Shown: positions 1 through 64,000, numbered from the stretch's first letter. The stretch: DNA of 64,000 nucleotides from a virus (IMGVR_UViG_3300045988_084999), one strand, 5' to 3'. Notes: generated from the letters alone by a model not told the origin. Numbers and translations are program-made.

Positions 1-548
1 AGAGCAGACATATCGTCGCAACTAGTCTTGACATAAGGCTCAATTAACTTGCGGCGATAAAAAGCGGTAGTGGCAGAAGTCGAGGGGAGCCAGTTATTAG
101 CGCTCCACTGATCTTCGATAAATTGCGGAAGCCACGCAAAATTTTGATGATTAGAAAAAATTACATGATCTGGAATCCCGACGGGAAGAAGCGTACCCTC
201 TGGAACTCCCATGATAGAAATAGGTAAATAACCAAGTTTATGCAATTCTTTAAACTTGGTAAAATCCGCATAATCAGGATGGAAAGTATTTTTAATTACA
301 TGATTCCACTCCTGTTCAAGAAGCTCAACTGGCTGATCAAAGAACTCTGTCTGCCAAAATTCAAGCAGTTTCTGGATGGTATATTGATGACCAAAGACCA
401 CTGTCTTAGGGCAATTTGGATGGTGCTTATAACTGCGAGCTGTCCAAGTAGAATAAACCATAGAGGCAGACTTCGGCTGCATCTTAATAGCATGACCAAC
501 TTTGTAGTAGTCAGCGGCAAACATTGGAGCTACATCAAAGAAACTCAT
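1..548 (-). CDS. Partial nicotinamide/nicotinate phosphoribosyltransferase-family protein (NAMPT/NadV- or Namat-like). N-terminus only; the gene runs off the window start.
   Basis: Reverse-strand reading from ATG at 546-548 (MSFFDVAPMFAADYYKVGHAIKMQPK...HQNFAWLPQFIED...) is open to position 1. It is absent from the ORF track because it is incomplete. AAGGAAAGGAAG RBS upstream. The DYYK..H N-terminal motif resembles the DSYK..H motif of the NAPRTase/NAMPT family. Confidence 0.45.
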   Translation of the reverse strand, partial: MSFFDVAPMFAADYYKVGHAIKMQPKSASMVYSTWTARSYKHHPNCPKTVVFGHQYTIQKLLEFWQTEFFDQPVELLEQEWNHVIKNTFHPDYADFTKFKELHKLGYLPISIMGVPEGTLLPVGIPDHVIFSNHQNFAWLPQFIEDQWSANNWLPSTSATTAFYRRKLIEPYVKTSCDDMSA

Positions 549-605
549 AAAATCTTCCTTTCCTTATTTCTTAAATATATTATATCATATATTTTTATAA
601 AAATA

Positions 606-631
606 AAAAGCCCTCTTTATGAGGGCTTTTA
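606..631. terminator. Rho-independent terminator hairpin (AAAAAGCCCTCtttatGAGGGCTTTT)
   Basis: Perfect 9-bp GC-containing stem flanked by A and T runs, lying between two minus-strand genes. Confidence 0.5.
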
Positions 632-787
632 TCAACTTTGAAGCAAGCTAAGCAACGCTTCAATTCCTACATATTCTGGCGCAATCGCACAAGTAATAAG
701 CGGAACACTAACCATTACGCCGACTACTAATACAAACAATAATATAAATAGCAGTAAATGCCATCTACTATAATCTGCTTCCATCAT
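632..787 (-). CDS. Small hydrophobic protein (51 aa, single TM predicted by eye)
   Basis: MMEADYSRWHLLLFILLFVLVVGVMVSVPLITCAIAPEYVGIEALLSLLQS read from the reverse strand. Below the 60-aa cutoff of the ORF track. Confidence 0.3.
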   Translation of the reverse strand: MMEADYSRWHLLLFILLFVLVVGVMVSVPLITCAIAPEYVGIEALLSLLQS

Positions 788-996
788 TATATATAACACA
801 AACCACACTATACCAATAAGTAAGAGGCCAGCAAAAACTCCTATAAAGAGAGTTGAAGTCAGGTCTTTAACGGTTACATATCAACCATATTTAGCCAACC
901 ACATGGGAGCGTTTTCCATAATAGTTTGAGTTGTTACTCCAAAAAATTCTGCGAGCGACTGAAGAATAGACGCGAGAGTCTGCTCTAAAGATAGAT

Positions 997-1446
997 TCAC
1001 TTTAACAACCCTCCAACAACAGCACTTACAATCTTCATATCTACCTTACCTTTAAGCTCCATAGAAACAGATTTCATAAGCGTACCACGATTTGCTTTGA
1101 GGAGATCAATACCTGCGGTTCCCGCAATCTCTCTTACTTTTGTTTCAATTTCTGCCTTATCAGTAATAAGCTGAGGGGCGCACATCTTTACGACCTTCAT
1201 ATCCTCTTGATACTGATGTAATTTTTCAGGATAACTAGCAGGACAGGTATCAATCATTTCTTGTACTGTCTTTTGGTATTTGATAAGGGTTTCATCAACT
1301 AGCTGCTCAGTTAATTCAACTCTTCCTTTTGGAGTAATGGCTGCTTTCTGACACGCATCAATCATATCAGAAAGCACCCTCTTTGTATTCATATCTCCAT
1401 TTTTAAGAGCCATAATCTTTAACTCTTGAAGTTTCTCAATCGTCAT
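997..1446 (-). CDS. GatB/YqeY-domain protein
   Basis: 149 aa. Overall similarity to the YqeY/GatB C-terminal domain family (…KRVLSDMIDACQKAAITPKG…). Start overlaps the stop of the upstream gene by 4 nt (operon). Confidence 0.5.
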   Translation of the reverse strand: MTIEKLQELKIMALKNGDMNTKRVLSDMIDACQKAAITPKGRVELTEQLVDETLIKYQKTVQEMIDTCPASYPEKLHQYQEDMKVVKMCAPQLITDKAEIETKVREIAGTAGIDLLKANRGTLMKSVSMELKGKVDMKIVSAVVGGLLK

Positions 1447-2255
1447 CTTACAATCTCTACCTTTCCTCTAATATCCCACTCTGGCTTGAAGATGCTATCA
1501 GAAGTGAAGATTTTCTTCACAATATCTTGATTATACATATCACCCTCAATCATGGTATGTTCTGCATGGGTCACATACAGATAAACATTCTTTGCGCCAG
1601 CTTCTTTGAGGGCATTTGCTGCATGATAAAAAGTTCCACCACGAGAGCAAATATCGTCTACAATTAAGACATTTCTCTCTTTAACAATTTCCTCATTCAT
1701 TAATTGCAAACCAAGAATTTTTCCAGTAGACCAATCTCTTTTCTTAATTCCAAAAGCATAAGGAAGACTAATGGGTGGAGCAGAATATCTCTTCATCGCT
1801 CCTTCATCTGGGAAAAATAGGATAGGAATTTCTCCTTCATATTCCTCAGTTCTCTTAATAGCCTCTTTGATTTCTCCAATTGGACTAAGATCAATAACTC
1901 TATCAAGTAGAGCTAACGATACATTAGAATGAGCATCACGCACAATAACTTTATCAAAATGAAGGCTATTAATTACTTGACAGAAGTATTTTAGAGTAAA
2001 TACATCTTCAAGTTCTTGAACTCGATCCATCCTTGCATGAGGAATATATAGCATATCTAGGTTTACAGGGAAATCTTCGAAATGTCCCTTAACACAAATG
2101 AGAGTAAATAATTCTGCATCATTCTCGTACTCCCAAACAATCGTATCATAATCGAAGTAGTTGGGAGGCATGTTAATATGCAGCGTACCATCTGGAAAAT
2201 GATTTTGTTCAATTACGTCTGTCCAATGACTGCGTGTATTAATTAGACTAATCAT
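1443..2255 (-). CDS. Ribose-phosphate pyrophosphokinase (PRPP synthetase)-family protein; possibly an ADP-ribose pyrophosphokinase (Adps-like)
   Basis: 270 aa. PRPP-binding phosphoribosyltransferase motif NVLIVDDICSRGGT. Sits in an operon with the PncA-like and NAMPT-like genes. Confidence 0.65.
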   Translation of the reverse strand: MISLINTRSHWTDVIEQNHFPDGTLHINMPPNYFDYDTIVWEYENDAELFTLICVKGHFEDFPVNLDMLYIPHARMDRVQELEDVFTLKYFCQVINSLHFDKVIVRDAHSNVSLALLDRVIDLSPIGEIKEAIKRTEEYEGEIPILFFPDEGAMKRYSAPPISLPYAFGIKKRDWSTGKILGLQLMNEEIVKERNVLIVDDICSRGGTFYHAANALKEAGAKNVYLYVTHAEHTMIEGDMYNQDIVKKIFTSDSIFKPEWDIRGKVEIVR

Positions 2256-2258
2256 TTT

Positions 2259-2831
2259 TTAATCCTCCACATCAATCTGCTGGGCTTTGAAAATAGTTAG
2301 CGCTGCTTCATGCGATTCTGGAGTTACTCCTGCACACGCACTAGAATGGACGATAATTCTAGTATTTGGCATCGCCGCACGAAGCATAACTGCATTAGCC
2401 ATAACGCAAATATCGGTACAAAATCCACAGATATGAATTTCTACTTCCTCGGGATTCTTCATTTTTAGAGAATCGTATACTTCATTGACCATATCAGTAC
2501 TGCCGAAGGTATCTTTTTCATAATAGTTAAATTTGTTATTCAACGCAACCATAATTCTGGAATCCATACACCAGCCCACACTTGCTTTGATACAATGTTT
2601 AATGGGAAGTCTTTTTCCTTCCAAAGTATCAAAGTAATCATTATCATGGGTATCCATGGTACAAATAACTTCCTCCCAACAGAATCGTTTAATTAGATTA
2701 ACGATATTAGGAACCGCGGCATCCGCTGTCTTAGATCCCAAAGAACCAGTAATAAAATCATTCTGCGCATCTACAATCACAAGAAGTCTATACATATCAT
2801 AATTCCTTTCTTTTATATAAATATTATACAA
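2259..2831 (-). CDS. Isochorismatase-family hydrolase, nicotinamidase (PncA)-like
   Basis: 190 aa. LLVIVDAQNDF motif with catalytic Cys context (ICGFCTDICV) typical of nicotinamidase/isochorismatase. Confidence 0.65.
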   Translation of the reverse strand: MYNIYIKERNYDMYRLLVIVDAQNDFITGSLGSKTADAAVPNIVNLIKRFCWEEVICTMDTHDNDYFDTLEGKRLPIKHCIKASVGWCMDSRIMVALNNKFNYYEKDTFGSTDMVNEVYDSLKMKNPEEVEIHICGFCTDICVMANAVMLRAAMPNTRIIVHSSACAGVTPESHEAALTIFKAQQIDVED

Positions 2832-3042
2832 TATTTTATTATAAAATTAAAGGAGAGAATATACTCTCCTTTAATTTAAAGTTTAATTGGTTATAGAATT
2901 GCGTTTATTAGTACACAAAGAAATGTAGCTCCAATGCCAGTATAATACCCAAGATAAAACTCTTCATCAACTGGGCCAAAAATAGTTTGAACCGTATAAT
3001 AAACAAAGAGCATACCTACCGCTCCCAAAATAATTCCTAACA

Positions 3043-4314
3043 TTAGATCTCTTCCTCCTGAGCCTCTTCCATGTCAGGTACATTCTCACTTTCTTTAATA
3101 ATTCCCTCGATGACTTTAAACTCATAAGTCTTAGACTTAAAAGCTGTGAAAGCACGACGATTTACAATTCGGACAACGACGCCCTCTTTTACATGGGTGC
3201 GGCCGATCGGATCAGTGAGATCTTCGAAGTATTTGTTAATGCGCTCCTGCAAATCCTCTATGGTAGTAAATTCAAAATCCTCAATCACAGGAACTCGATT
3301 AAAGCCATGAGCATTACACCATTCAGTAATCTCGTCAGGAGTCCACTCTCTTTCTCCATTTTCAGAGGTAATACGATAAATATACATCTTGCTCTGACCA
3401 GGCTCACATCCATAAGAGAAAATAGAACGCTTACCAAACTGCTTTACAAAAGCCTTATCATTGACTTTGGTATTATCTCCGATAGGCATAATGGTGTTCT
3501 CTTCATTAGGGCCGTAATAACCCACTACTTCGTAGAAAACTTCCATTCCGGGCTCAAGATAAGGTTTCAATGCTTCATGATGTGGCATACGAAACTGGTC
3601 ATTTCCATAAAATCCCTGAGAGTTCTCTGTGACTACACAACGACGAGTTCCAAGAACATAAGCCTGCTTAGTGCGCTTTTTCATATGGAAGAGGCGACGG
3701 AAGAAACCATTAGGAAGCTAAGCATAAGTATTCATAGAGCGCTGAGAAGTTCCGTGCATTTTAAGGGTCATATTGAGAATATCTCCGGAGCGGAACTTAT
3801 CAAGATTATATGCCAATTGTTCAGTATCAGTATGCATAGAGAACTCAGGATATGTAATTCCCTCAGCCTTACGACCTTTATAAGAAGTCTTAACCTGACC
3901 AGTGGGAGTCTTGCGCTTAGGAATGTATTTACGGCAAAATTCTTTGTCGTTGATAGTGTTTACCTTATCTCCATCTTTCCAGTTCTGATTTCCGAATTTT
4001 TCATAAACTTTATCAAGAGCAATTACAACACCAGAACTCTGATTGCCGCGAAGCTTAATAGCCCTGATATGTCCATTATTTTCGATGTAGCCACCCTGAG
4101 GAGTTCCATCCTCGTTCTTGCGGAAGAGGCAAAATTCATTCCCGAACCATCTCTCAATCTCGCCATCAGTAGGAAGATAAAGAACCAACTGACCGGTTTG
4201 CATATCAGGGCCGACAATTACGCCCTCATTGAAACAATCTGCAAGATAAAGGCGGTCACTATTCTCGTCCTTCCGCACATTCTGCAACTTAGTTACAAGA
4301 CCAAAATATGCCAT
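3043..4314 (-). CDS. Putative RNA ligase / nucleotidyltransferase (Rnl1-like). One gene containing an in-frame TAG at 3718-3720.
   Basis: ORF-track fragments 3718..4314 and 3043..3684 are in the same frame and separated only by a TAG (…SMNTYA-TAG-LPNGFFRRLFHMKKRTKQ…). An LKMHGTS motif resembles motif I (KxDG) of T4 Rnl1 (TKEDGSL). Confidence 0.4.
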
Positions 4315-4333
4315 TCTATATCATTCTCCTTTC

Positions 4334-4672
4334 TTACCATTTATCATATCTGTCATGATCAGGGTCTTCTTCAATAGTAGTCACCAAATAGGAAAGCCAA
4401 CCTTCAATTTCCTCTTGATACATACCAGAAATTTCATCTTCATCTTCTTGGGTCAGTTCATCCTCAGCCAGTCCATTTTCTTCACAATACTGCTCTCGAA
4501 TGTCTTCCTCAGACAAAATCCCATGCAGTCCCTCATAAGATTGGTACTCTTCAATCGCTAGCTCTCGAGCAGCTTCCTCGGCGTCTTCTCTGGAGTCATA
4601 ATCTTCTGTGCAATGATATTGATACCCATCAAATCCTCCGCTCAGGCCTGCGTATAAATTATATTTAGCCAT
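4334..4672 (-). CDS. Highly acidic hypothetical protein (possible DNA-mimic type)
   Basis: 112 aa, very D/E rich. No recognisable domain. Confidence 0.35.
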   Translation of the reverse strand: MAKYNLYAGLSGGFDGYQYHCTEDYDSREDAEEAARELAIEEYQSYEGLHGILSEEDIREQYCEENGLAEDELTQEDEDEISGMYQEEIEGWLSYLVTTIEEDPDHDRYDKW

Positions 4673-5489
4673 TTACTCTCCTCCAACCCATTCCATAGTA
4701 GTGGTTACCACCCTTGATAGCTTTCTCGATGTTTTTTATCGTATTTTCAAGATTGAAATGCTCATAGGTGTCAGACTCGCATTTATTCTCTTTAAGCCAC
4801 AGTGCAGCAGCTTCAACACTAGTAAAAGTATTTGTAGCTCGCTTTTTAGAATTAACAATGCAAATAGTTCCAGCAGGATAACCAGCCTTATTCCATTTAG
4901 GAGTAAAAACACTTTCTTTATTAGTTGCTTTCCTCTTCCAATCAGCAAACATTTCATCAAGTGTCTCTCTTGATGTGTTACTCATAAAATCATATACTTC
5001 CTTTAATAGAACTGCATCATCTAAGGAGTTGTGATTTTGTTCAGCAGAAGAATTAAATCTTCTGAGGGTATTCAAAAGACTGTGATTACATTCCCATTTC
5101 AGCTCTTTTTTGCACATCTTGGCATAATCTCGATAATTGCCACAAATATATCCCAACGCCATTTTTGCTTTAAGCGCAGTTGCATGACGAGAAGTATGTC
5201 GAATAAAATCTCCATCAGAATTTCCCCATACAAGAAATTCTGGTGCATCATCTAGATTTTCAAACAACCAATCATAGAACTTAGAGAATACGGCATCGGC
5301 AGACATAGCACTATCAATCATCTCTGCTGTGATACCAGTAAGATTAGTAATGAAAGGAGTAATTTTACCTTTCTTTGGGGCTACGAGTGCATAAAAAGTC
5401 TGACCATCCTCTCTAATACATCCGATAGAAATAATTTCTTGCGAAAATTGTGTAGCCTCAAAGTCGATAAAATATTTCATTACTAACAA
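4665..5489 (-). CDS. DEDDh 3'-5' exonuclease (DnaQ-like) with C-terminal extension
   Basis: Exo I motif YFIDFEATQ and exo III motif HNSLDDA. Confidence 0.6.
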   Translation of the reverse strand: MLVMKYFIDFEATQFSQEIISIGCIREDGQTFYALVAPKKGKITPFITNLTGITAEMIDSAMSADAVFSKFYDWLFENLDDAPEFLVWGNSDGDFIRHTSRHATALKAKMALGYICGNYRDYAKMCKKELKWECNHSLLNTLRRFNSSAEQNHNSLDDAVLLKEVYDFMSNTSRETLDEMFADWKRKATNKESVFTPKWNKAGYPAGTICIVNSKKRATNTFTSVEAAALWLKENKCESDTYEHFNLENTIKNIEKAIKGGNHYYGMGWRRVNG

Positions 5490-5742
5490 TCTCCTCTCTT
5501 AATAATTTTGAAACTCCATTGTTACAGGAAGAACTTTGTGTTTCTGCTCAAATTGGTTCCAAATTACCTCTTCTCTTGACACTATTACCTTCATAGGTTG
5601 TGATTAAGAAGCAATTTATTGAACAGTTTGAATAAATTTAATCTCTATGAATGGTCTCGGCGCCTGCATTCTCCATTGTCGAATAATTTGATTATCTAGA
5701 TAGATACTAAAAGTAACATCAAAAATATCTTCATTCATGACA

Positions 5743-6021
5743 TTAATAAACATCATACCCCTGCCTTCTCATTACAGCCAATGATTTATATACCATTTTA
5801 CCCATGCTCTTACTTTTTGCTTTTGTTACATTTCCCATTTCAATTAAATGAGAAAGAATACGAGCCATCTTCTGAGGGCTTAGCCCCGTTAATGTAATTG
5901 ATCTTTGCTGAATTTGTTCAATAGTAAGAGCCTCTTCACTATCAGCAAGAATTACCATTACTTCTCCTTGAAACAAGGCGTTCTGATCTTTTGTATATTT
6001 TGAAGTTCTGCGACCTGGCAT
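5743..6021 (-). CDS. Small putative DNA-binding (winged-helix-like) protein, 92 aa
   Basis: Start moved to the ATG at 6019-6021, which has an AAGGAGG RBS. The ORF-track version (133 aa) reads through the upstream small gene. Confidence 0.35.
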   Translation of the reverse strand: MPGRRTSKYTKDQNALFQGEVMVILADSEEALTIEQIQQRSITLTGLSPQKMARILSHLIEMGNVTKAKSKSMGKMVYKSLAVMRRQGYDVY

Positions 6022-6022
6022 A

Positions 6023-6193
6023 TTACTGTACCTCCTTATAGGAAATAACCCTAATATTTTCAAGTTTTTCAGTATAGGAAGTCCTGCCATTATAGATAAC
6101 TGCAATCTTATTCTTGCGGTCAATGCCAATAATCTTACCATCACGACCGCTAAGAGTCTTCACGATTGTTCCTTCACATACATAAGGCATCAT
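6023..6193 (-). CDS. Small protein (56 aa), KOW-like
   Basis: MMPYVCEGTIVKTLSGRDGKIIGIDRKNKIAVIYNGRTSYTEKLENIRVISYKEVQ. Stop immediately precedes the RBS of the next gene. Confidence 0.3.
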   Translation of the reverse strand: MMPYVCEGTIVKTLSGRDGKIIGIDRKNKIAVIYNGRTSYTEKLENIRVISYKEVQ

Positions 6194-6269
6194 ATAAATT
6201 ACTTCCTTTCTTAACTTTCTATATATATTATATCATATAAAAATAAAAAAATAAAGAAGATGATAATGG

Positions 6270-7028
6270 TTAGTTATCATCTTCTTTAGTCCAACGATTG
6301 TAGATATCTTCTAAGTTTTCTATGTTATAATATAGCATTTGCACGCCGGGTTGAACTACTCTGTCATCATGAAAGTGGCCAAAAAGATATGTATTAAAAG
6401 AAATCATATCTTTAAATTTATCAAGCCAAAGCTCCATAGTATTGTCTACTGTATTTTGATCCAACCCTTGAAGAAATAGGTCAAATGGCTGCCAAGAATA
6501 TGGACAAGTATGAGCAAAAATAAAATCAAAATGTTTGCCCTTAAACCTTTCTGTAATATCAGCCATTTCCTCTGGAGTTAGCTGTTCATCCTTAAACCAT
6601 CCAGTCCACTTGGCATCTTGCGGAAAATGAGATAAACGATACCACTTATCTACACTATACGCACCACCAATTACAAGAGTAGGGTGCATATTAATGAGAT
6701 AAGCATGACCATCCATTAAGTATCTAATGTTAGGGTATTCAGACTCGTAGTAAACTGTACCTTCTACGTTTTCATCATATATCTGATGCATAGTAGGAAT
6801 ATTCTCTGGTCGCTCTTCATGATTTCCTCTTACGCAATAGATAAAATAGCCAGTCTTATTAATTACCTGCTTATTCTTTGCGTCCGTCTTATTGAGATAA
6901 AAATTTATGCCTACATCGCCGAGAATAATAATTGCTGTCTCCTCTGGAACATAACAATTTTCTATATGAAATAATCGTTCCATTACTCTACCGTGGGTAT
7001 CACCAGTAACCAACCAATTCTTAATCAT
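6270..7028 (-). CDS. Calcineurin-like metallophosphoesterase
   Basis: GDTHG, GDVG and GNHE motifs. Confidence 0.65.
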   Translation of the reverse strand: MIKNWLVTGDTHGRVMERLFHIENCYVPEETAIIILGDVGINFYLNKTDAKNKQVINKTGYFIYCVRGNHEERPENIPTMHQIYDENVEGTVYYESEYPNIRYLMDGHAYLINMHPTLVIGGAYSVDKWYRLSHFPQDAKWTGWFKDEQLTPEEMADITERFKGKHFDFIFAHTCPYSWQPFDLFLQGLDQNTVDNTMELWLDKFKDMISFNTYLFGHFHDDRVVQPGVQMLYYNIENLEDIYNRWTKEDDN

Positions 7029-7824
7029 CTTCGCTCAACTCCCTCTCCACGGCAGTTTTCATAATTTCATACTGCACGTCATCAAGAAGTGCATTTACTT
7101 CTGGATCTTCCTTATTAGGGTAGATAGAATAGGCATATTCCGCCATTTCTTCCACATGAGCCTTAGCTTTATCCGCCATAGTTCTGGCTTCCGCAAGTGA
7201 ATATTTTCCCATCTTGATTTCGATTAGCTCTTGTTTCATAGGGCCGGGGTCTAAACAACTTTCATAGCTTTCTCCTGCGATATATCTACTAAGATAATCT
7301 TCTACTCGGACAAGATGGTGAAGCTGTTTAGGATCGTAGCCATACTTCTTTAAAATTTCTACTTTACTAGGATACTCATGTTCCATTGCATGATATTTTT
7401 CAAGAGCAATTCCTTTCATACTTTGAACAGAACGATAAGGATTAAAATGAGTAATTGCCTCTCTTGATTCTAACAAGCGATTCCACTGTTTTTCATAGAT
7501 GGGATTAATAACAGCAAACTCTGTATAAAGAATTTCAAGGAAGTTTAAGTTTTGTTTGCGGAATGTCTGAATATAGAGGCGGATATCTTTCCAGTCAGTA
7601 TGTTCTTCATTAGCTCTCACATGAGTTGTACTAACTGGCTTGCGATTCATAGCAATGTCTTTAAAGCTAGGAACTACAATAAGTTTCGTATCTACATCTG
7701 ATAGTGGAGTATCAAGTCCGTAGTTTTGACTACCCTGTAGAAAGATACCTACAATTTGATCTTTATGAAAGTGAGTAAGAGCTTCGTCAAGATGTTCTTG
7801 CACTCTTTGCATAGTAGATAACAC
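7021..7824 (-). CDS. Minimal nucleotidyltransferase (Pol-beta superfamily)
   Basis: GSQNYGLDTPLSDVDT, i.e. the GS-x10-DxD signature. Confidence 0.55.
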   Translation of the reverse strand: MLSTMQRVQEHLDEALTHFHKDQIVGIFLQGSQNYGLDTPLSDVDTKLIVVPSFKDIAMNRKPVSTTHVRANEEHTDWKDIRLYIQTFRKQNLNFLEILYTEFAVINPIYEKQWNRLLESREAITHFNPYRSVQSMKGIALEKYHAMEHEYPSKVEILKKYGYDPKQLHHLVRVEDYLSRYIAGESYESCLDPGPMKQELIEIKMGKYSLAEARTMADKAKAHVEEMAEYAYSIYPNKEDPEVNALLDDVQYEIMKTAVERELSEDD

Positions 7825-7836
7825 CTTTACTCCTCC

Positions 7837-8253
7837 TTAATTCCAATTATTGAAAATTTTCTTTTGTTCTTTTAAGGCACGTTCAATTTCTCTATCAGCT
7901 TGTTTTTTCAGATATTCTATATCTTTTTGGCAATCTTCTAATATCCAAATTAAAGTATCTCGTCTTCCTTTCCTTTCTTCATTAATCCTAGAAAAGATTC
8001 TATTTAATTGAAAATAGCAGAAAGCCATAAAAGTTAATTTAATTTTGTGATTGCCATAATATAAATGCTTTATATCATCAACCCAACGAACTTCAGTATA
8101 GCTCCATCTTAAAGGATTGACTTTGTATATCTGACGAAAGATTTTTAACTTTAATTTTGTTTCTCCTTGATAGTTAAAGCATAGCCACCAAATAAAAAGA
8201 AAACCAAACCCGCAGATAATTCCAAGCAAGAACAATATTTTTAATAATGTCAT
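7837..8253 (-). CDS. Membrane-anchored hypothetical protein
   Basis: Hydrophobic N-terminal helix (LLKILFLLGIICGFGFLFIWWL). Confidence 0.35.
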   Translation of the reverse strand: MTLLKILFLLGIICGFGFLFIWWLCFNYQGETKLKLKIFRQIYKVNPLRWSYTEVRWVDDIKHLYYGNHKIKLTFMAFCYFQLNRIFSRINEERKGRRDTLIWILEDCQKDIEYLKKQADREIERALKEQKKIFNNWN

Positions 8254-8486
8254 AGAGGCTCCACACCCAATCTCTTTCCATTAGAACTAACAATGATGTG
8301 TTTTCTACAGGCTGGACATCTAACTGTTGAATAGTTGTGATATTCTCCGAAGCATTCTTCACTGTTGGCCATTTCATCTTTTGCAGTAAAACCAATAATA
8401 CTATCACAATTAGGACATCTTACTTTATATTTTTTCATATTATCTTCAATTATCCAAGCCATTATCAATAGCCTCCATTTCTTCAA
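8250..8486 (-). CDS. Zinc-ribbon protein
   Basis: CPNC…CPAC pairs. Confidence 0.35.
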   Translation of the reverse strand: MKKWRLLIMAWIIEDNMKKYKVRCPNCDSIIGFTAKDEMANSEECFGEYHNYSTVRCPACRKHIIVSSNGKRLGVEPL

Positions 8487-8757
8487 TATATCTATCAGGA
8501 ATAGGATGTGCAGTTACAAGAGTTTTTGTTTTTCCTCTCCATATATAAATACATCCTCTATAAATTCTAACCGAACAGTCATTTGTTTGATTTTTCTTAT
8601 TTTGAAGATAAGAAAAGAATTTAGGATACTTCTGAAAATTATTGAGAGTCTTTCCAGAAATGCGGGCTTGCTTAGCTAAACGTTTCGCCTCAGCAAAAGT
8701 GCTAACTCCATTAGTTCTCTCAACAATTCTCTGCTTACTATGCTTCGTAATTACCAT
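8446..8757 (-). CDS. Hypothetical protein (DUF4258-like N-terminus)
   Basis: VITKHSKQRIVERTNG motif. Confidence 0.3.
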   Translation of the reverse strand: MVITKHSKQRIVERTNGVSTFAEAKRLAKQARISGKTLNNFQKYPKFFSYLQNKKNQTNDCSVRIYRGCIYIWRGKTKTLVTAHPIPDRYIEEMEAIDNGLDN

Positions 8758-8852
8758 CTGCCAACTTCCTTTCCTTTATTTTATATATATATTATATCAT
8801 ATAAAAATAAAAAAATAAAGGAGAACGATTAACTCGTTCTCCTTTATTAAGA

Positions 8853-40093: not shown

Positions 40094-40096
40094 ATC

Positions 40097-42989: not shown

Positions 42990-42994
42990 TCGTA

Positions 42995-43260
42995 TTTCTG
43001 CAATACTATGAAAAATTTCATGTATTTCTGAGAATACTATGATTTCATCATATTGTGAAAAAGCTATGAAATTTTCATGTATTTGTTGGAAAGCGATGAA
43101 ATTGTTTTCATGGTATTCTGATAATACTATGAAATTAAATAAAAAGGATTTTCATAGCTTTCCAACAATACCATGTCATAGTATTCTGACAATACCATGA
43201 AAGTAAATAAAAATCCATTTCATGGTATTCTGACAATACAACAAATATAACATATATTAG
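42995..43260. repeat. Iteron-like repeat block (AATACTATGAAA and CATGGTATTCTGACAATAC motifs, each recurring several times); candidate replication origin
   Basis: The motifs ttcatgtatttctgagaatactatga, catggtattctgataatactatgaaa, catagtattctgacaataccatgaaa and catggtattctgacaatac all fall within about 270 nt. Confidence 0.45.
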
Positions 43261-43332
43261 ATAACAGAGTTAAGATAACAGTCGCGACTTTTTTATGTAT
43301 TTGTGAAAAAGCGATGAGTAGGAGGATTAAGG

Positions 43333-43723
43333 CATGGAAGTATTTAAACCGATTAAGGTAGAAAATTATCAATTCATGAAGAATGGATTAAATTAGTATG
43401 AACCAGTATTAGTTTACTTTAAAGATGATGAAGAAGAAGGCAAGGTATATTTTGTAAAGAATAAATTTGATGATAAGTTAGAAGAATGGATGGAAGAGAA
43501 TTTAAAGGTAGAAGGAAGAAGTAGAGTTATAGTAGATAAGTATCATAATAGGATAAGTATAGATGTTTTTACTCAAGATTTAGAGGACTCTATAACCGAT
43601 TTAGAAAAACGAATTGAAAAGTTAGAAGAAGGTTTTAGAGAAATCGAATTGAAAAATCGAGATAAAAATGGAGAGATATATGATTTGGTTGGAAGGATAA
43701 GAGAGATAAATAGAACTGGATAG
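43333..43723 (+). CDS. Hypothetical protein with one in-frame TAG
   Basis: MEVFKPIKVENYQFMKNGLN-TAG-YEPVLVYFKDD… is in frame with ORF 43490..43723. Confidence 0.35.
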
Positions 43724-43803
43724 AGATGTAGATTATCTTTATATGAAGATTGAAAGAAATTAAAGGAAATTAAAAGAAGTTTATAAAATGATGGAGTTGG
43801 GTG

Positions 43804-55442: not shown

Positions 55443-55880
55443 TTAATTATAAAGCTGATACTTCTTCCCAATTTTGTCAATTTCTTCCGCCTCCATTGGC
55501 CTAAATCCAATACACGTCAAAGTCCCTTCCGGGCCTTCGCGTTCTAACTCTGTTCTACAAGCATCATAGATAAGCCAATAATCCTTATTCTCTTCCCATC
55601 CTAATTCTTCTGCTATCTTAACAGCCTTTAACAAATCATTCTTATTCTTCGCTCTACAAACTACTTTGGTCTCCGCTTCCGCTATCCAATTATGGAATAA
55701 GTCTCTATCGAGGCTTATTCCTATATGATACATAAGACCGTCTCTTTCTTTAACAACTTCTTTACTTCCCCAATATAACTTTTCCAAAAGAAAAGCAATA
55801 GAAGCATGGGAAACTTGTGCGGCAAGTTTCCCTGGAGACATATTTAAGTCTCGTCTCGCAATAATTAATTGCTTGAACAT
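55443..55880 (-). CDS. Peptidyl-tRNA hydrolase, PTH2 family
   Basis: KQLIIARRDLNMSPGKLAAQVSHAS N-terminal signature. Confidence 0.55.
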   Translation of the reverse strand: MFKQLIIARRDLNMSPGKLAAQVSHASIAFLLEKLYWGSKEVVKERDGLMYHIGISLDRDLFHNWIAEAETKVVCRAKNKNDLLKAVKIAEELGWEENKDYWLIYDACRTELEREGPEGTLTCIGFRPMEAEEIDKIGKKYQLYN

Positions 55881-56632
55881 TTTTCCAAAACCTCCAAGAA
55901 AATTCTAAAATTGCGGGAATTGCGGTTTGGAATCGCAAAATAGATATTTGGAATATTATAATTGCGGGCTGCGTTTACGAGCAAGGTGGCGACCGTTGAT
56001 GGATCTTGCATAAAAACACCACAGCCCCAGGCTCCCGCGATTAAATTTTCCACTCCCTTAGCCTCGGCAATCCGATACATAAAATTAATTCTCTCTTCCA
56101 TTATCCTATTGTTTAGAGAAAGAGGAACTTGCTGATAAGTATGTGCTGTTCTATAATTAGGAGAAGCACAAGTAATTACATCAGCTAATTTTCTACCATT
56201 GTCTTTTTCAAAGACTACATCAGGAGTATAGATAGCTCTATCAAGATATAGGGCTCGATTTAGTCTCTGTCTATTCCATGCGTAATAAGTATCATCAAAA
56301 GCAAGAAGAATAGGATAAAGGTTGCTTTCGTGACACAATGCCTCTTCTTGTGCAGAGCTGCCTCCAAGGAAGTAACCACCTGGATGTTTATAGCTTGCAT
56401 AATTTAAGATCGCAGTCTTGCTCCGATCGGTTAAACTGAATAGACAGGATACGCTATCTTGATCTTTAAGATAAAAGGTATTATGGTAGGTTTCTCGCGG
56501 TTTTTGCGGAAAAGGAAGATTGGGGCCAAAAATTTCAGAGTTTATAATTGCGCGATCTGTATCTTCCTTGAGTCTCACTTTAATGTCTGCGTAATGCGAT
56601 TGCGCGTGTTGTTTGAGCTCTTCTCGTTTCAT
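55865..56632 (-). CDS. Microbial-type PARG-like macrodomain protein (TIGR02452-like, ADP-ribose processing)
   Basis: …ASYKHPGGYFLGGSSAQEEALCHESNLY…AGAWGCGVF… motifs. Start moved to MKREELK, which has an RBS. Confidence 0.5.
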   Translation of the reverse strand: MKREELKQHAQSHYADIKVRLKEDTDRAIINSEIFGPNLPFPQKPRETYHNTFYLKDQDSVSCLFSLTDRSKTAILNYASYKHPGGYFLGGSSAQEEALCHESNLYPILLAFDDTYYAWNRQRLNRALYLDRAIYTPDVVFEKDNGRKLADVITCASPNYRTAHTYQQVPLSLNNRIMEERINFMYRIAEAKGVENLIAGAWGCGVFMQDPSTVATLLVNAARNYNIPNIYFAIPNRNSRNFRIFLEVLEKCSSN

Positions 56633-56856: not shown

Positions 56857-57303
56857 TTACTCATATTTACACCCATTCATTCTACAGTCTATTGTGCATT
56901 GCCCTGACGCTCCTTCACAAGGAATAGCATCAGGATAGTATTCAAAATAAGACGAGGTTAATAGAACTTCATATCCAAGTTCCCGCAGTATTCTTTCTGC
57001 GACATATCTATCTCTTAATTTAATCCATTCTTCTCTATTTACTTTTGTTTCTTCATATATTTTTCGAGATTCTTCCATATCTATTGTTATGATACCATCG
57101 GTGTTAGTTTTAAATACTGAAGGACTTTGTGTATGATAAAATTTTCGAAAGGGATTGTTAATATGAAGAACTTCTTCAGCATATTTGTCAAAATCTCCCG
57201 AAAATTTCATTATCTTTGCGCCTGTTTCGCTAACTATAAACAATTTTTCATCAACCCCAATCTTGTTAATAGACCTACTCCTCCGGGGACAGGAGTTGAC
57301 CAT
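56857..57303 (-). CDS. Hypothetical protein
   Basis: 148 aa. Confidence 0.3.
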   Translation of the reverse strand: MVNSCPRRSRSINKIGVDEKLFIVSETGAKIMKFSGDFDKYAEEVLHINNPFRKFYHTQSPSVFKTNTDGIITIDMEESRKIYEETKVNREEWIKLRDRYVAERILRELGYEVLLTSSYFEYYPDAIPCEGASGQCTIDCRMNGCKYE

Positions 57304-57995
57304 ACATTATTTCTTTTTGCAATTTCATCAATTTCTACAAAGTCTCCAAGAATAATTCCTGCTTCATTTCTGCGAATACCAACATCTATAACAATAGCGT
57401 TAGGACAGGCTTCTCTTGTTAAGCTAAATTTTCCTACCGCAGAGACAATTAAATCTGCTTGCCTTGTTAAATAGAGTTTTGTATTTATATCTGTTTTGCT
57501 ATGACATACTGATACGGTCATATTTCTATCCAGTAGAGCTTTAGCCATTGGCTTTCCTACAATATCGCTTCTTCCCAAAATAACAGCAGATTTACCTTCG
57601 TAGTTAAAACCACATTCATCCAAATAGTCTATAATTCCTCTTACTGTTGCTGGAGTAATATTGCTCATAGGATTTAAACCATCCGCATCTTTAGAGATAG
57701 GTATTTGACTATAATTGAAATCAATTCCATTTGCTACTGGCATTTGAACTATTACCGCATCCCAGTCTTTCGCATGGCCTAAGAGTAATCTTAACTCTAC
57801 TGAACTATTCGCTCTAAACACTTCTGCTTCCCAACCAAGAGCATTAAAGTCTTTTATTTTATTACGAATATAAATTTGATTTGCGGGATCCTAGGCTGTT
57901 GCGTCGATAATCATGAGTGATGGAACATTACCACTAATCTCCCGCAATTTGTTTACCTATTGTTGAAAATATTCTTTTATATTAATCTATTGCAT
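57234..57995 (-). CDS. folD: Methylenetetrahydrofolate dehydrogenase/cyclohydrolase (FolD) with 3 in-frame TAGs in the N-terminal third
   Basis: The C-terminal NAD(P) domain AVILGRSDIVGKPMAKALLDRNMTVSVCHSKT…ADLIVSAVGKF is in the ORF track. The upstream frame continues as MQ-TAG-INIKEYFQQ-TAG-VNKLREISGNVPSLMIIDATA-TAG-DPANQIYIRNKIKDFNALGWEAEV, which matches the FolD N-domain. Confidence 0.55.
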
Positions 57996-58416
57996 CTGGA
58001 TTAAGCCTCCAAGGGTCACTAGTATCGTAATCAATCATTTCATAGAAAGATATTTCATTTTCATTAACTTCTAATACCTAGTGAGGAATACACTATACTT
58101 CATAGTCAAAATCTTTATTAATATGGTAAGAAGTATATATATGAATAGCAATAGGTCTAGGATCATTAACTCCCTAAATATCCCATAAACTTATTGCTTT
58201 ATTTTGGAAGATTTCCTAAGCATACTATGGAGATATAGCAATACTGATTATTAAGATATTAAAATAATACTATGCTTTTTTCGGTAAATCTAAATATGGT
58301 TCGTCAAAGAACATTGGCAAACAAATCTCCTATCTTATTTTTTATAATTATATTATAACATTTTTAAATAAATTAATCAAATAAGATTTGACAATCTAGT
58401 TTTTTTTTGTTATTAT

Positions 58417-59487
58417 ATGAGTATAAAAGGAGATGACAGTATGATAAAATTAGATTATACTATTGAGTCTCCAGAAGAACGGAAGGCGCTTGTCGAAAAA
58501 ATAATCGCAGAAAATCCGAACCTTAGTTCGAGTTATTTAGAAATATTAGCAGATTATTTAGTTCTATGTATGGAAAAGCAAGAGAAGAAAGAAAAGAATA
58601 TATTAACAGATAATAGAATGGCTACTGTTAATAAAAGAGAATGTTCTTTCGAAGGGCTTGCGTCATAGATGGAAAATGGCGAGGATGGCATTTATGGTTT
58701 AATGTCAGAAAATAAAAATGTTATATTTTAGCCAAAGATTTCTATTACACAGAAAGATTTAGATACTATACCATGTTTAAAATAGTTGAGAGAAACCATT
58801 AATGTCTGGGAGGGCGCTTTAAAACGCGCTGCTGGGACAAAATAGGCATATATGATGAAAAAAGCATTAATAGAGATGCGAAAAGATTAGTATATCATTA
58901 AGCAAGCATATTAGAAACCTATTATACCATGTAAATTAACGAGATCCGTAAGAACTCATATTCCTCTTGATGATTAGAGTTATCTTAATGGACAGGAGGT
59001 AGTAGTAAAGGGTATTTCGCTAATGGACGCCAATGTTGTTTCTGCTATTTTATGCAATTATTCAAAATTAAAAGAAGATAGTTATGATTAGTTTGAGGGA
59101 GATACATGGTATTTAATTCAATCATTTGAAGAAATATGTGATAAAGCTCTCAAAGACTTTCCAATCTATTTACGAATTGTTGAACTCAAAATTGATAAAA
59201 AGTAGAATAACGAAATATAGGAAATATTAAAAAATGAGTTTGGTAAAACATATAGCGTTGAATATATTTCTAGCCTATGGAGAAATAAGATTCCTAAACT
59301 CATTGCGGAAGAAGCTTTAGAAGATTTTTTACGTTGGTAGTATAAACAAAAAGGATACCCAATGAAAAAATGTTCTAAGTGTGGGCAATTAAAGCCAGCC
59401 CATAATCAATTCTTTTCAAAGAATAAGACAAGTAAGGATAATTTGTATAGTATCTGTAAGCGCTGTCGCAATAAGAAAAGAGGTTGA
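58417..59487 (+). CDS. Late-operon hypothetical protein with C-terminal zinc ribbon; about 12 in-frame TAGs; ends at TGA
   Basis: The frame of ORF 58417..58668 is continuous through the TAGs to …CSKCGQLKPAHNQFFSKNKTSKDNLYSICKRCRNKKRG-TGA. Sigma-A-like promoter (TTGACA…) at about 58391. Confidence 0.4.
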
Positions 59488-59493
59488 TTATAA

Positions 59494-60663
59494 ATGAGCC
59501 ATTATTGTAAAAAATGTGGTAAAACTATGGATGATAAATAGTTTTATACATCAAAAAATTTAGAGAAGTATCCTCCAGATGGAAAGATGGATATTTGTAA
59601 AAAGTGTCTTACTATGCACGTAGATAACTGGGATCCAGAAACTTATAAATGGATTTTATAGGAGATTGACGTTCCATATATTAAAGAAGAATGGAATGGT
59701 TTATTGGAGAAATATGGAAAAGATCCAAAGAAAGTTACTGGATTAACTATTATTGGACGCTATTTATCTAAAATGAAATTAAAGCAATGGAATAAATACA
59801 CTTGGGCAGATACAGAAACGCTAGAGAAAGATTCCATTGATAAAAAAGTTCTTAATATGAAGGCTCAAGGATTTACAGAAGATGAAATTCAAGAGCAGTT
59901 GTCTATTGATAGAACTCCTCCAAAACCAAAAGAATTAGAGGATGTTTAGGCCCCTGTAGGAACTCCAGAATATGAAGATCCAGAGGAAGATGATGATTTT
60001 GGTGATTAGCTAACCGAAGAAGATAAATTAGTATTACGTCTTAAATGGGGCCGCGGATATTCTTGGGAAGAAAGAGTAAGAATGGAGCAGCTTTATAATG
60101 ATATGATGAGTTCTTATGATATTCAAGGAGCAGGTCATAAAGATACTCTTATTATGGTATGTAAAGCTAGTTTAAAAGCAAATTAGTTAATTGATGCTGG
60201 AGATATTGATGGCTTTTAGAAGATGCAAAAAGCCTATGATAGTTTAATGAAAAGCGGCAAATTTACGGCTGCTTAGAACAAAGGCGAATCCGGTGAATTT
60301 GTAGATTCAATAGGTGAATTAGTAGCCCTTTGTGAAAGAGAGGGTTTTATTCCTAGATATTATACGGAAGGGCCACAAGATAAAGTAGATAGAACTCTTT
60401 AGGATTTACAGCAATATACTCATACTCTAGTTACAGAGGAAATGAATCTTGGTAATATGATCGAAGCTTCGTTAAGAGAAATAGTTAAAGACAGAGAACG
60501 CGAGGCAAATATTGATGTTGAAGATAGCGATGAGGATGAAGATTTATTTAATTACGAGCATCCAGAATTAACAGAAGAAGATTATCAAGAGTATGAAGAT
60601 ATGAAAGAGTCGGAAAGAGACAAAGATGAGGAAATGTTAAATAATATATTAAAGGAGGTTTAA
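59494..60663 (+). CDS. Hypothetical late protein (possible terminase small subunit or packaging accessory) with multiple in-frame TAGs
   Basis: MSHYCKKCGKTMDDK-TAG-FYTSKNLEKY… is in frame with ORF-track pieces 59704..59949 and 60442..60663. Confidence 0.35.
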
Positions 60664-60666
60664 TAT

Positions 60667-62412
60667 ATGGCATTAAAAGATTTATTAAACCTTTCAAATA
60701 ATAATAAGAAAATTGGTCTTTCCGAAGAAAGAGTTCGTGCGATAATTCCAGCAGCAAGATAGTATATAGCTTTTTGGAGAGAATATCCAGATATGTTTAT
60801 TGACTTTTTGTAGACCGGCGGAGACGAGACAAGAAAAAAAGAAATTAATTTTTATTTTTATTAGAGAGTTTTCTTGCGGGCGGCCATGAGATATAAGTAT
60901 GTATACATGGTATTTCCCCGTGCTTATTCTAAGTCATTCTTATCAGTAATGGTACTTATGTGTAGATGTATATTATATCCTGGATGTAAGCTATTCATTA
61001 CTTCTGGCGGAAAAGAATAGGCAGCAGGTATTGCAAAAGAAAAAGTCTAGGAAATTTGTAATGCGATTCCCGCACTTTAGAGAGAGATTGATTGGCGAAG
61101 AGGTAAGACTTAGGAAGGAAAAGATTATTGTAAGTATATCTTCAAAAATGGATCTTATTTTGACAACGTCGCGGCTAGAGAATCTTCTCGTGGTAAGCGT
61201 AGACATGGAGGATTAATTGAGGAGTGCGTTGGTGTAGATGGAGATATTTTAAATGAAGTTTTAATCCCTCTAATGAACGTTGATAGAAGATGTTTAGACG
61301 GATCTGTTCATGAAGAAGAAACACTTAATAAATCTTAGATTTATGTAACTACTGCGGGGTGGAAAAACACATTCCCATATAATAAGTTGATTACTTTGCT
61401 AGTGCGCATGATACTAGAACCCGAAAAGAGTATTGTAATGGGCGGAACATGGAGAATTCCTGTGCTAGTGGGATTGCAATCCCGCAACTTTGTATAGGAG
61501 TTAAAACAAGATGGTACATTTAATGAAGCATCATTTGATAGAGAGTATGAATCTAAATGGAGTGGCACCGTAGAAGATGCCTTCTTTAATGGTGATGCTT
61601 TTGATAGAAGTAGAAAATTGCTTTAGCCTGAATATGAATCTTCCGGGCGCTCTTCTGCTCAAGCATATTATGTTCTTTCTGTTGATGTAGGAAGAAAGAA
61701 ATGTCAATCTGTTGTATGTGTATTTAAAGTAACCCCTCAGTCTCAAGGACCAGCGATTAAGTCTCTTGTTAATATATATACTATGGATGATGAACATTTT
61801 GAAGATTAGGCAATTAAGCTAAAAAGATTATATTATGATTATAAAGCTAAAATTATTGTTATTGACGGTAATGGACTTGGTGCTGGATTGATGGATTATA
61901 TGGTTAAACCACAAATAGTGCCAGATACCAATGAAGTTTTTCCTGATTTTGGTGTAGCTAATGATGAAGATGGAGAATACAAACGATTTAGAACAGATAA
62001 TACAGAATATGATGCTATTTATGAAATTAAGGCAAATGCGCCAATTAATACCGAAGCCCATAGCAATGTTTAGACATAGTTGCGGGCTGGAAAGTTAAGA
62101 TTTTTAATCGACGAAAAAGTTGCTAGAAATAAATTACTTGGTACCAAGAAAGGTCAAGCCATGAAACCAGAAGAGCGGGCAGAATATTTAAAACCATTCA
62201 CTTTAACTTCTATATTAAGAGAAGAAATGCTAAATTTGCGAGAAGAAAATGAGGGTGTAAATATTATTTTAAAACAGGCAAATAAGTCTGTGCCCAAAGA
62301 TAAATTCTCTGCGCTTGAATATGGATTATATTATATTAAATAGGAAGAAGATAGTAAACGCAAGCGTAAAAGTAGAAGATTTTCAGATTTTATGTTTATG
62401 AGTGAGGTGTGA
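60667..62412 (+). CDS. terL: Terminase large subunit with about 14 in-frame TAGs; ends at TGA
   Basis: A single frame was verified codon-by-codon from ATG 60667. It has an ATPase Walker A-like motif VFPRAYSKSF, a nuclease-domain motif KIIVIDGNGLGAGLMDYM, and the DNTEYDAIYEIKANAP… segment. ORF-track pieces 61888..62073 and 62080..62343 lie in this frame. Confidence 0.65.
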
Positions 62413-62415
62413 GAT

Positions 62416-62772
62416 ATGAAGGCCAGTCGTGGAGAAATTAAAATTCATGAGATATTAGAGCAAAATGGCATGAACTTTAAAGAAGAGTATGAGTTTCCTG
62501 GGCTGAAAGCACCAAGTGGTAGGCCACTTCGTTTTGATTTTGCTGTTTTTGATGATGATGGAAATCTTGATTTTTTAATTGAGTATCAGGGTAAATAGCA
62601 TTATTAGGCTGTTAGTAAATTTGGTGGAAATAGAGGATTATACCAATAGAAATATAATGATAATCAAAAGCGTAGATTTTGTGCATTAAAAGGTATTACC
62701 CTCATTGAAGTTCCCTATACGGAGGAAAATATCATCTCTTATGATTATTTAATGAGTAAAGCTGGATATTAA
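62416..62772 (+). CDS. Small PD-(D/E)xK-like (Vsr/DUF559-like) nuclease with 3 in-frame TAGs
   Basis: …RFDFAVFDDDGNLDFLIEYQGK-TAG-HY… is in frame with ORF 62416..62598. Confidence 0.35.
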
Positions 62773-62789
62773 CACCTGGAGGTGATATT

Positions 62790-64000
62790 TTGTTAAAACG
62801 TCGATAGGAAGAAATAAGAGCTAAAGGTTTTGATCTACTAGATCGAGGTATTATTACTCGTTATCAATAGGAAGAAGATTTTTTGAACTATGATACTGTT
62901 GATTATGCAAAAATGCGAGTTGGATTACGGTCTGTGGATGATGCGCTTATTAATCTAGGCACATATAAAAAGATAAATAGAAATTATGGAGATAAAAAGT
63001 TTGTATTAAATGCTATTTATAAGCATGATTACAAGACTTTAAGAGAGATTTCTAATTACTTTTATGAAAGTAGCGGTATTTATTATAGATTATGTAAATA
63101 TTTAGCCTTCTTATATAGATTTGATTGGTATATTACTCCATACACAGTAGACGCGTAGAAAGATAAAGATAAGCTATTGAAAGATTTTTCAAAGGTCTTG
63201 CTTTACCTTGATAAATCTAGTGTGAAGAGAATGCTTGGAAATATATCATTAGATATTATTAAAGAAGGAGCTTATTATGGTGTAATTGTTGATTTTGGAG
63301 ATAGATTTGCAATTTAGAAATTACCAGCTTCATATTGCAGAAGTAGATATTTCTAGGGCCCTAATCCAATAGTAGAATTAAATCTTTAGTTTTTTGACAC
63401 TTATTTTGCCAATCCGCAGTATAAAATCTAGATATTAAAGATTTTTCCACAGGACATTCAAAAGGCATATATTCTTTATAAACAGGGAAAATTAAAAGGG
63501 GATTATCCAGGTGATACTACTGTATGGTATCCACTAGATCCTAGTATTTCTGTAAAGTTTAGTCTAAATGATAATGAATTTCCTTTTCTAGCTGGGGTTA
63601 TTCCTTCTATTATTGATTTGGATCAAGCGCAAGAATTAGATCGTCAAAAGACAATGCAACAATTATTAAAAATTATTATTTAGAAGTTGCCTCTTGATAA
63701 AAATGGAGATTTGATTTTTGATGTTGATGAAGCAAGGGATATTCATAATAATGCTGTAACTATGTTAAAACGAGCTATTGGTGTAGATGTATTAACAACT
63801 TTTGCAGATATTGAAAAAATTGATACAAAAGATAATAATTCTAATACAACGACAGACGATTTGGAAAAAGTTGAACGTACAGTTTATAATAACTCAGGTG
63901 TAACTCATAATTTGTTTAATGCAGATGGCAATATTGCAGTTACAAATTCTATTTTGACAGATGAATCTAGCGTAAGAGATATTCCTCTCATGTTTACAGA
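62790..64000 (+). CDS. Portal protein (partial; continues beyond the window end), TTG start after GGAGGTGA, with multiple in-frame TAGs
   Basis: The frame of ORF 62883..63158 extends through the TAGs to the window end (…GVIVDFGDRFAI-TAG-KLPASYC…TVWYPLDPSISVKFSLNDNEFPFLAGVIPSIIDLDQAQELDRQKTMQQ…). It follows terL directly. Confidence 0.5.

Follow-up and report, generated by a model that had tools for sequence, protein, structure and literature searches.

The stretch of DNA analysed here (the window) covers positions 1 to 64,000 of the viral sequence IMGVR_UViG_3300045988_084999. In this phage TAG is read as a sense codon, and three lines of sequence evidence, namely alignment columns, codon turnover and tRNA type, agree in assigning it to glutamine (Gln). 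An amber-suppressor tRNA with the anticodon CTA is encoded on the minus strand at 14529-14604. The phage is very probably a siphophage of Bacillota from the human gut, ~147 kb in size and related to SPbeta and EF1, in which TAG specifies Gln and would act as a suppressor-dependent filter. The window has a G+C content of 37% and the majority of its genes on the minus strand.

Gene calling relied on a codon-usage model whose training set was the long open reading frames (ORFs) of the window itself, with one run per candidate code. With the standard code (code 11) the coding fraction reached 0.635 in the whole window, 0.39 at 57210-64000, 0.67 in the fibre block and 0.933 at 1-13469. Re-prediction with TAG as a sense codon, as the initial annotation had proposed, raised these values to 0.758, 0.98, 0.97 and 0.935, respectively. 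Read-through of the two other stop codons, used as a control, brought no gain in coding fraction for the same intervals (TGA: 0.652, 0.40, 0.67 and 0.962; TAA: 0.671, 0.41, 0.68 and 0.912). The late region is called as 7 genes with TAG as sense, against 10 fragments in the standard code, and the whole TAG-sense run gave 104 calls, or 99 once those overlapping RNA genes were removed. Raw counts of long ORFs did not discriminate between the codes, because TAA read-through yields even more long ORFs; homology and coding potential did.

The TAG-sense calls contain 86 in-frame TAG codons spread over 24 genes, which are real and far above chance expectation. The same-frame fragments split by TAG alone, on which the initial annotation had based a genome-wide reassignment of this codon, were thus recovered, and the terminase gene TerL, credited with about 14 TAG, has exactly 14 and neither TAA nor TGA. 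As also claimed, TAA (78 genes) and TGA (19 genes) end all 97 complete genes and TAG ends none, an absence that is not due to chance because standard-code relatives terminate 8 of 53 genes with TAG. The idea of a genome-wide reassignment holds insofar as TAG is sense and never stop; only about a quarter of the genes carry it. The last TAG lies within 10 codons of the gene end in at most 2-3 genes, and in each gene coding potential persists beyond it. Full-length homologues were regained for TerL, the TerS-like gene, the portal (phrog_2739), FolD and Ung (both by Pfam), the RNA ligase and the fibres. In a few cases (997-1479 and possibly codon 11 of the AAA ATPase), a single TAG close to the N-terminus may precede the true start.

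The fragmented aspect of the late region in code 11 could also be expected from a standard code with broken genes, i.e. pseudogenes, assembly errors, introns or programmed read-through. This explanation is already refuted. The frames are broken by TAG alone, the five genes of the plus-strand block 58417-63998 containing 44 TAG, 0 TAA and 0 TGA in 1846 codons, coding potential is unbroken across every TAG and a suppressor tRNA matching TAG is present. Assembly error is excluded because independent public assemblies contain an identical TerL with the same 14 TAG.

TerL (60667-62412, plus strand), of the YonF/SPbeta type, carries TAG at codons 32, 49, 66, 118, 128, 138, 149, 224, 277, 320, 381, 469, 471 and 559. 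Codons 66, 118 and 381 face Gln in all six annotated homologues, and the closest of these (60% identical and not recoded) has Gln at 8 of the 14 sites. Among 47 distinct IMG/VR relatives, columns 66, 118, 224 and 381 hold solely Gln or TAG and most of the remaining sites hold mainly Gln, so that the TAG codons do fall at conserved columns, as the initial annotation required of a genuine reassignment. Gln makes up 32% of the residues at TAG-containing TerL columns compared with a background of 3%, and the summed BLOSUM62 score at these columns is 1691 for Gln and 718 for the runner-up, Glu. Gln-or-TAG cells account for 74% of the relatives' positions at the window's TAG columns and 65% at its CAA/CAG columns, against 1-4% at its Lys, Glu, Leu, Tyr, Trp or Ser columns. 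In other genes, the TAG of Ung (codon 36) pairs with Gln in the best PDB homologue and the PDB alignments of FolD continue straight through the TAG sites.

Codon turnover points in the same direction. In pairs of TerL at least 95% identical, the codon facing TAG was CAG in 180 and CAA in 175 of 367 cases (355/367, 97%). The number of TAG in TerL varies across the clade from 0 to 14 among relatives 68-100% identical, and is inversely correlated with the number of CAG (Spearman rho = -0.78). The Gln-type codons of the packaging block comprise 44 TAG, 31 CAA and 11 CAG, those of the genes at 3-13469 comprise 2 TAG, 71 CAA and 68 CAG. Since CAG is depleted where TAG is rich and the two vary inversely in TerL, the main route to TAG would be a single transition from CAG.

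The suppressor tRNA was identified by ARAGORN and scores 59.8 bits with the Rfam tRNA model. It folds as a canonical cloverleaf whose D-loop contains GG and whose T-loop reads TTCGAAT, has a 5-nt variable loop and an encoded CCA, and combines a U1·U72 mismatch with G73. Both features are retained in diverged copies on other viral contigs, in which the arms co-vary. The lack of a closed 1:72 pair, together with G73, agrees with the known identity set of GlnRS. The T-arm and the 3' strand of the acceptor stem were searched for in one genome per bacterial and archaeal species, and 60 of the 65 bacterial matches to this signature were tRNA-Gln. Similarity over the whole tRNA gives close values for two tRNAs of the window, tRNA-Trp (71%) and tRNA-Gln (68%); the acceptor-stem search decides, and assigns the suppressor a tRNA-Gln origin. 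An identical 3' end, in the A1-U72 form, is found in Oscillospiraceae, Ruminococcaceae and other gut Clostridia and for this reason gives a hint of gut Clostridia as host. In E. coli, the supE-type amber suppressors also place a CUA anticodon on a tRNA-Gln body. Unlike supE, which is a host mutation conferring partial suppression, the suppressor of the window is a dedicated and conserved gene of the phage and supports the reassignment of a codon across the whole genome.

It is very improbable that a residue other than Gln (pyrrolysine, Glu, Lys, Trp or Tyr) is inserted at TAG. ARAGORN labels the suppressor 'Pyl', a label that reflects the CTA anticodon alone. Pyrrolysine tRNAs have a small D-loop and a 3-nt variable loop and are devoid of the normal D-loop GG, T-loop and 5-nt variable loop, all of which the suppressor has; its architecture is not of the pyrrolysine type, and neither Pyl genes (pylS/pylBCD) nor genes for RF2, GlnRS or GatCAB were found among the scanned window proteins of at least 140 aa. 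The slightly higher overall similarity to tRNA-Trp would speak for Trp, and Glu would be inserted if a non-discriminating GluRS charged the tRNA and amidation failed. Against all of these, the TAG columns hold Gln rather than Lys, Trp, Tyr or Glu, TAG turns over with CAG and CAA only in the close TerL pairs, and the acceptor stem is of the tRNA-Gln type.

Recoding is confined to about a quarter of the genes. TAG reaches 23.8 per 1000 codons in the packaging block (51% of Gln-type codons), 27.0 in the FolD unit at 57210-58314 (50%), 17.9 in a small plus-strand island at 42245-43753 (64%) and 10.5 in the fibre block (32%), compared with 0.5 in the minus-strand genes at 3-13469 (1.4%) and 0.6 in those at 33125-57210 (2.0%). 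The packaging, FolD and fibre units together hold 70 TAG in 3743 codons and the early-type genes 5 in 9631, a ~37-fold difference in density (Fisher p = 4e-33). The contrast drawn by the initial annotation between early genes with few TAG and late genes with many therefore stands as a trend. It does not stand as a rule, since FolD is metabolic and has 4 TAG, and homing endonucleases and small plus-strand regulator-like genes are further exceptions. The resemblance that it noted to the pattern proposed for recoded phages agrees with the literature (Borges et al., 10.1101/2021.08.26.457843). Strand-specific mutation bias was considered as a cause of this distribution and ruled out, given that the fibre and FolD genes, although encoded on the minus strand, are rich in TAG as well.

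The relatives provide an informative exception beyond the right end of the window (locus L101, 16020-20485, and loci L009-L088). There, the major capsid gene (YonB family) and two genes coding for 229-aa and 177-aa proteins contain 0-0.8 TAG per 1000 codons, whereas TerL, portal, TerS-like gene and homing-endonuclease-like gene (HEG) of the same operon contain 12-19. Because these capsid genes are nearly free of TAG, the codon seems to be avoided where output must be high and not only in early genes.

Transcription signals were sought by consensus match. A promoter-like site with a perfect sigma-70/sigma-A consensus (TTGACA-17-TG-TATAAT) is located at 15042-15070 on the minus strand, ~440 nt upstream of the suppressor tRNA, and it is precisely at this site that conservation with the DNA of a related phage contig sets in. 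The suppressor looks like an early gene, with a predicted host-type promoter. A second site (TTGACA-17-TG-TATTAT, 11/12 matches) is located at 58388-58416 on the plus strand, directly ahead of the TAG-rich plus-strand block. Altogether 23 near-consensus sigma-A promoter-like sites (at least 11/12 matches) were counted versus 3.5 in shuffles, 19 of them on the minus strand. Most are found at 33-55 kb before TAG-free early-type genes or in the tRNA array, where the form TTGAAA-17-TATAAT recurs. The minus-strand stretches concerned are 23000-33400 and 33000-55000. An extended -10 TG is present in many of the sites, and for most of them a small TAG-free gene on the minus strand follows 22-80 nt downstream. 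Strong predicted terminator-like hairpins flank the fibre block at 20716-20688 and 16049-16009.

The following course of events would account for this pattern. In an uninfected or newly infected cell using the standard code, RF1 would terminate translation at TAG. The suppressor tRNA would be transcribed by the host RNA polymerase from its consensus promoter and charged by the host enzyme normally serving tRNA-Gln. Genes with many TAG (terminase, portal, the helix-turn-helix (HTH)/zinc-ribbon gene, FolD unit, HEGs and fibres) would be produced at full length only once the suppressor accumulates, and even in its presence the yield would drop with each TAG. The codons would have arisen mainly through CAG-to-TAG transitions, to be retained only where a delay or a low level of expression does no harm or is of use, and purged from the early genes and, in relatives, also from the major capsid gene and its two neighbours. 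Translation would in this way be filtered for part of the late, low-copy functions, instead of being switched uniformly for all 'late genes', and timing and dosage are both plausible consequences of the filter.

Several observations weigh against this model. Compared with CAA/CAG, TAG has neither a 5' positional bias nor a special +4 base after it, and its placement gives no sign of designed stalling because both signatures are absent. The host-type promoter-like site ahead of the TAG-rich block suggests that timing may be set elsewhere; the promoter and terminator sites are themselves consensus matches only. No gene for RF2, an aminoacyl-tRNA synthetase or an anti-RF1 protein was seen in the 64 of ~147 kb available. 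Finally, a host using the GluRS/GatCAB route would leave a small chance of Glu at TAG.

Timing and dosage can also be taken separately. In a pure timing gate, TAG would be the mark of late genes in general, whose translation would be switched on by the appearance of the suppressor. This is a possible account, though we would not favour it. The near absence of TAG from early-type genes behind consensus host promoters and its abundance in packaging and fibre genes are in agreement with such a gate, and the same pattern and gate model were published for other recoded phages (10.1101/2021.08.26.457843). However, the major capsid gene of the relatives and its two neighbours are TAG-free inside the same late operon, TAG is carried by FolD, the CopG-like regulator and the homing endonucleases, and no 5' bias of TAG exists. 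The perfect host-type promoter in front of the suppressor also implies that it would probably be made from the start of infection.

An efficiency or dosage filter without timing, which we hold at about the same reserve, would suppose that TAG is poorly decoded in competition with RF1, so that selection clears it from genes of high or early output while drift through CAG-to-TAG transitions fills the low-copy ones. It agrees with the decrease of TAG density with expected protein abundance, close to zero in the relatives' capsid gene, coding for the most abundant virion protein, and its two neighbours, and at 12-19 per 1000 codons in their low-copy terminase, portal and HEG genes. The quick turnover of TAG and CAG among near-identical relatives and the lack of any positional or context signature are also in its favour. 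In the packaging block TAG nevertheless makes up ~50% of the codons for Gln, which is high for pure drift at a cost in yield, and the convergent enrichment of TAG in late and lysis genes of unrelated recoded phages suggests a benefit (10.1101/2021.08.26.457843).

A more elaborate joint version of the filter can be proposed tentatively, and we consider it rather unlikely as a whole. TAG would be barred from early and bulk products, including the relatives' capsid and its two neighbours, and dense TAG would keep low-copy or potentially harmful functions at a low, suppressor-dependent level. This set would comprise the terminase, the portal, the homing endonucleases and the DNA-binding HTH/zinc-ribbon protein. 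A translation kit made of a transfer-messenger RNA (tmRNA) with a TGA-ended tag ORF, the peptidyl-tRNA hydrolase PTH2 and a YqeY-like protein of the tRNA-Gln-binding type would, in the same version, be tied to suppression.

The TAG-rich genes are grouped in a few units. The plus-strand block opens with an HTH-type helical protein bearing a C-terminal four-Cys zinc ribbon (58441-59487, alternative start 58417; 11 in-frame TAG). Its label as a 'sigma factor' (phrog_5767) was not confirmed, no Pfam, NCBIfam or PDB sequence match being obtained, and the idea of a timer leading from the suppressor to a sigma factor was dropped because this label is unsupported. With Gln at the TAG sites, the 348-aa protein is 100% identical to an entry in public gene catalogues, and the matching gene calls come from a Human Microbiome Project contig. 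The next gene is the TerS-like gene of the YonG_N family (59494-60663; 8 TAG; phrog_3314), which is syntenic with the small-terminase genes of relatives, matches Pfam YonG_N on a public orthologue and has TAG columns that are often Gln in relatives. TerL is followed by the small HEG (62416-62772; 3 TAG; phrog_9084 and phrog_559) and the portal (62790-64000; phrog_2739, 7.8e-53), which runs off the window end and has 8 TAG in its visible part, or 6 if the later start of public gene calls holds.

FolD itself (57210-57995, minus strand; 4 TAG; Pfam THF_DHG_CYH_C, 7.8e-38) forms with a minus-strand ORF at 57982-58314 (6 TAG) a divergent TAG-rich unit. The fibre block (15789-20523, minus strand) consists of six tail-fibre-like genes, five of which share 16 TAG. 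A GIY-YIG homing endonuclease lies within the tRNA array (25117-25899, minus strand; Pfam match), and two of its 3 TAG are inside the GIY-YIG motif region (…IYIG-TAG-T…). The plus-strand island at 42245-43753 includes four small genes, one of them CopG/Arc-like, with 7 TAG. A single TAG was found in Ung, the uracil-DNA glycosylase (35108-35821, minus strand; codon 36), in the RNA-ligase-like gene (3043-4314, minus strand; codon 199) and in the AAA ATPase, each with a Pfam match.

Recoding of TAG to Gln by means of phage-encoded suppressor tRNAs has been well described (Borges et al., 10.1101/2021.08.26.457843; Peters 2022), and Gln at TAG was confirmed by proteomics in crAss-like phages only (PMC9523058). 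The window has in common with code-15 gut phages the use of TAG for Gln with a phage-encoded CTA suppressor tRNA, the standard code of replication and early genes, the recoding of structural, packaging and homing-endonuclease genes and a degree of recoding that differs among close relatives. Unlike these phages, no RF2 or aminoacyl-tRNA synthetase is visible in its 64 kb. The TAG-recoded gut clades mapped by Borges et al. are crAss-like, Lak, Garnet, Amethyst and others (10.1101/2021.08.26.457843), whereas the window belongs to an SPbeta/EF1-like large siphophage of Bacillota.

The nearest cultured phages by TerL (tblastn) are Enterococcus phage EF1 (49% identity) and Geobacillus virus E3 (47%), and phAss-1 has 43%. 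The phAss-1 group (proposed Phassvirus and relatives) consists of human-gut siphophages of 130-148 kb related to EF1, with 28-36 tRNAs, SUP-CTA genes and TAG in TerL, portal, fibres and some DNA-metabolism genes (PMC10607447). The gene order TerS-TerL-HEG-portal is common to phAss-1 and the window; the window encodes one suppressor tRNA and phAss-1 three. phAss-1 retains the HEG at the corresponding place (L008, 25106-25435), with 38% identity. Within this assemblage BK048656_ctOa11 (147,880 bp, 35% G+C) is TAG-recoded and has a SUP-CTA gene (Babkin et al. 2023, PMC10607447), and was among the first phages reported with a major vault protein (MVP) (10.1101/2023.11.10.566534). Like ctOa11, the window combines TAG recoding, a suppressor tRNA and an MVP gene, and its lineage is probably ctOa11-like.

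No useful near match to the window was obtained by DNA similarity in the INPHARED phage collection. IMG/VR contains at least 277 relatives, five of them with a TerL 99-100% identical in amino acids. The phage genome CALCFD010000051.1 (147,780 bp) is 76-84% identical in nucleotides to window positions 12091-15070 and 20278-20880 and has a near-identical suppressor tRNA. It was binned in an 'uncultured Eubacterium sp.' metagenome-assembled genome that is a species representative, which may hint weakly at the host or may reflect contamination of the bin. Pfam YonG_N, YonD_N and YonB match a public orthologous contig.

The TAG-to-Gln phenomenon, the gate model and the lineage have all been published already. 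NCBI taxonomy includes a 'Caudoviricetes code 15 clade', and the translations of these genes in public gene catalogues already have Gln at TAG. What is added here is detail: the suppressor derives from tRNA-Gln and has a conserved U1·U72 mismatch, TAG arises mainly from CAG, TAG counts in the TerL of close relatives are graded from 0 to 14, and the capsid gene is an exception. The series of TerL genes with 0 to 14 TAG offers natural material for the gene-by-gene spread of recoding, and the phage is another clear virus altering the code of a standard-code cell. Annotation in the standard code shatters its terminase, portal and fibre genes. In the PHROG database TerL is split over two families of 'unknown function', phrog_15503 (residues 5-218) and phrog_24618 (residues 353-578), which looks like a trace of recoded relatives annotated in the standard code. 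For phAss-1, the GenBank annotation likewise consists of numerous short 'hypothetical' fragments.

The tRNA array (13470-32996, minus strand) comprises 31 tRNA genes, a tRNA-like RNA and a tmRNA. The normal tRNA-Gln(CTG) and tRNA-Gln(TTG) are encoded in it at 22631-22782. The tmRNA at 24829-25149 (minus strand; Rfam RF00023, 76.8 bits) was missed by ARAGORN. Its tag frame GAC GAA GAT TAT TTC GAA AAT TAT CTT GCT GCT TGA TAG encodes (A)DEDYFENYLAA and terminates at TGA, immediately followed by TAG. Any connection of amber suppression with this ribosome-rescue RNA would be speculative. The tRNA-like RNA at 22345-22461 (minus strand; Rfam tRNA, 49.8 bits) has normal acceptor, D and T arms, no CCA and an insertion of ~46 nt in the anticodon arm that folds into a separate hairpin (GGTCTT…AAGACC). 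A group I intron would need more length than this, and the ARAGORN intron model (Lys-CTT) is unconvincing; instead of a genuine tRNA, the molecule may be a mimic of one.

Several accessory proteins related to translation and RNA repair are encoded outside the array, all on the minus strand: a YqeY-like protein (997-1479; Pfam, 35.9 bits), the peptidyl-tRNA hydrolase PTH2 (55443-55880), the aforementioned RNA ligase (3043-4314) and an RlaP-like nucleotidyltransferase (7021-7812). The YqeY-like domain is presumably of the type found in the tRNA-binding tail of GatB, and a role of the protein in charging the suppressor would be speculation. Papers on T4-like phages mention YqeY as well.

The metabolic and RNA-repair content of the window includes FolD, Ung, RNA ligase, RlaP, PTH2, PARG and enzymes salvaging nicotinamide adenine dinucleotide (NAD). 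The NAD-related genes are located at 3-2831 and 55865-56632 on the minus strand and are all TAG-free. They code for a partial nicotinate/nicotinamide phosphoribosyltransferase-like protein at the window edge, a phosphoribosyltransferase resembling phosphoribosyl-pyrophosphate synthetase, an isochorismatase-family protein that is possibly a nicotinamidase and a microbial-type PARG. No lysis genes were found within the 64-kb window.

Two large TAG-free genes are adjacent on the minus strand. The first codes for an MVP homologue of 813 aa (8853-11294; Pfam MVP_shoulder, 6e-18) that aligns with rat MVP in the PDB over residues 464-771 (E = 4.6e-17). The first report of MVPs in phages of the human gut is 10.1101/2023.11.10.566534, and the exact protein of the window is present in NCBI as 'major vault protein'. 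The second, adjoining gene codes for a DUF2828/DUF7788 protein of 506 aa (11706-13226), for which a relationship with Ro60/TROVE was considered and found unsupported, with no PDB sequence match.

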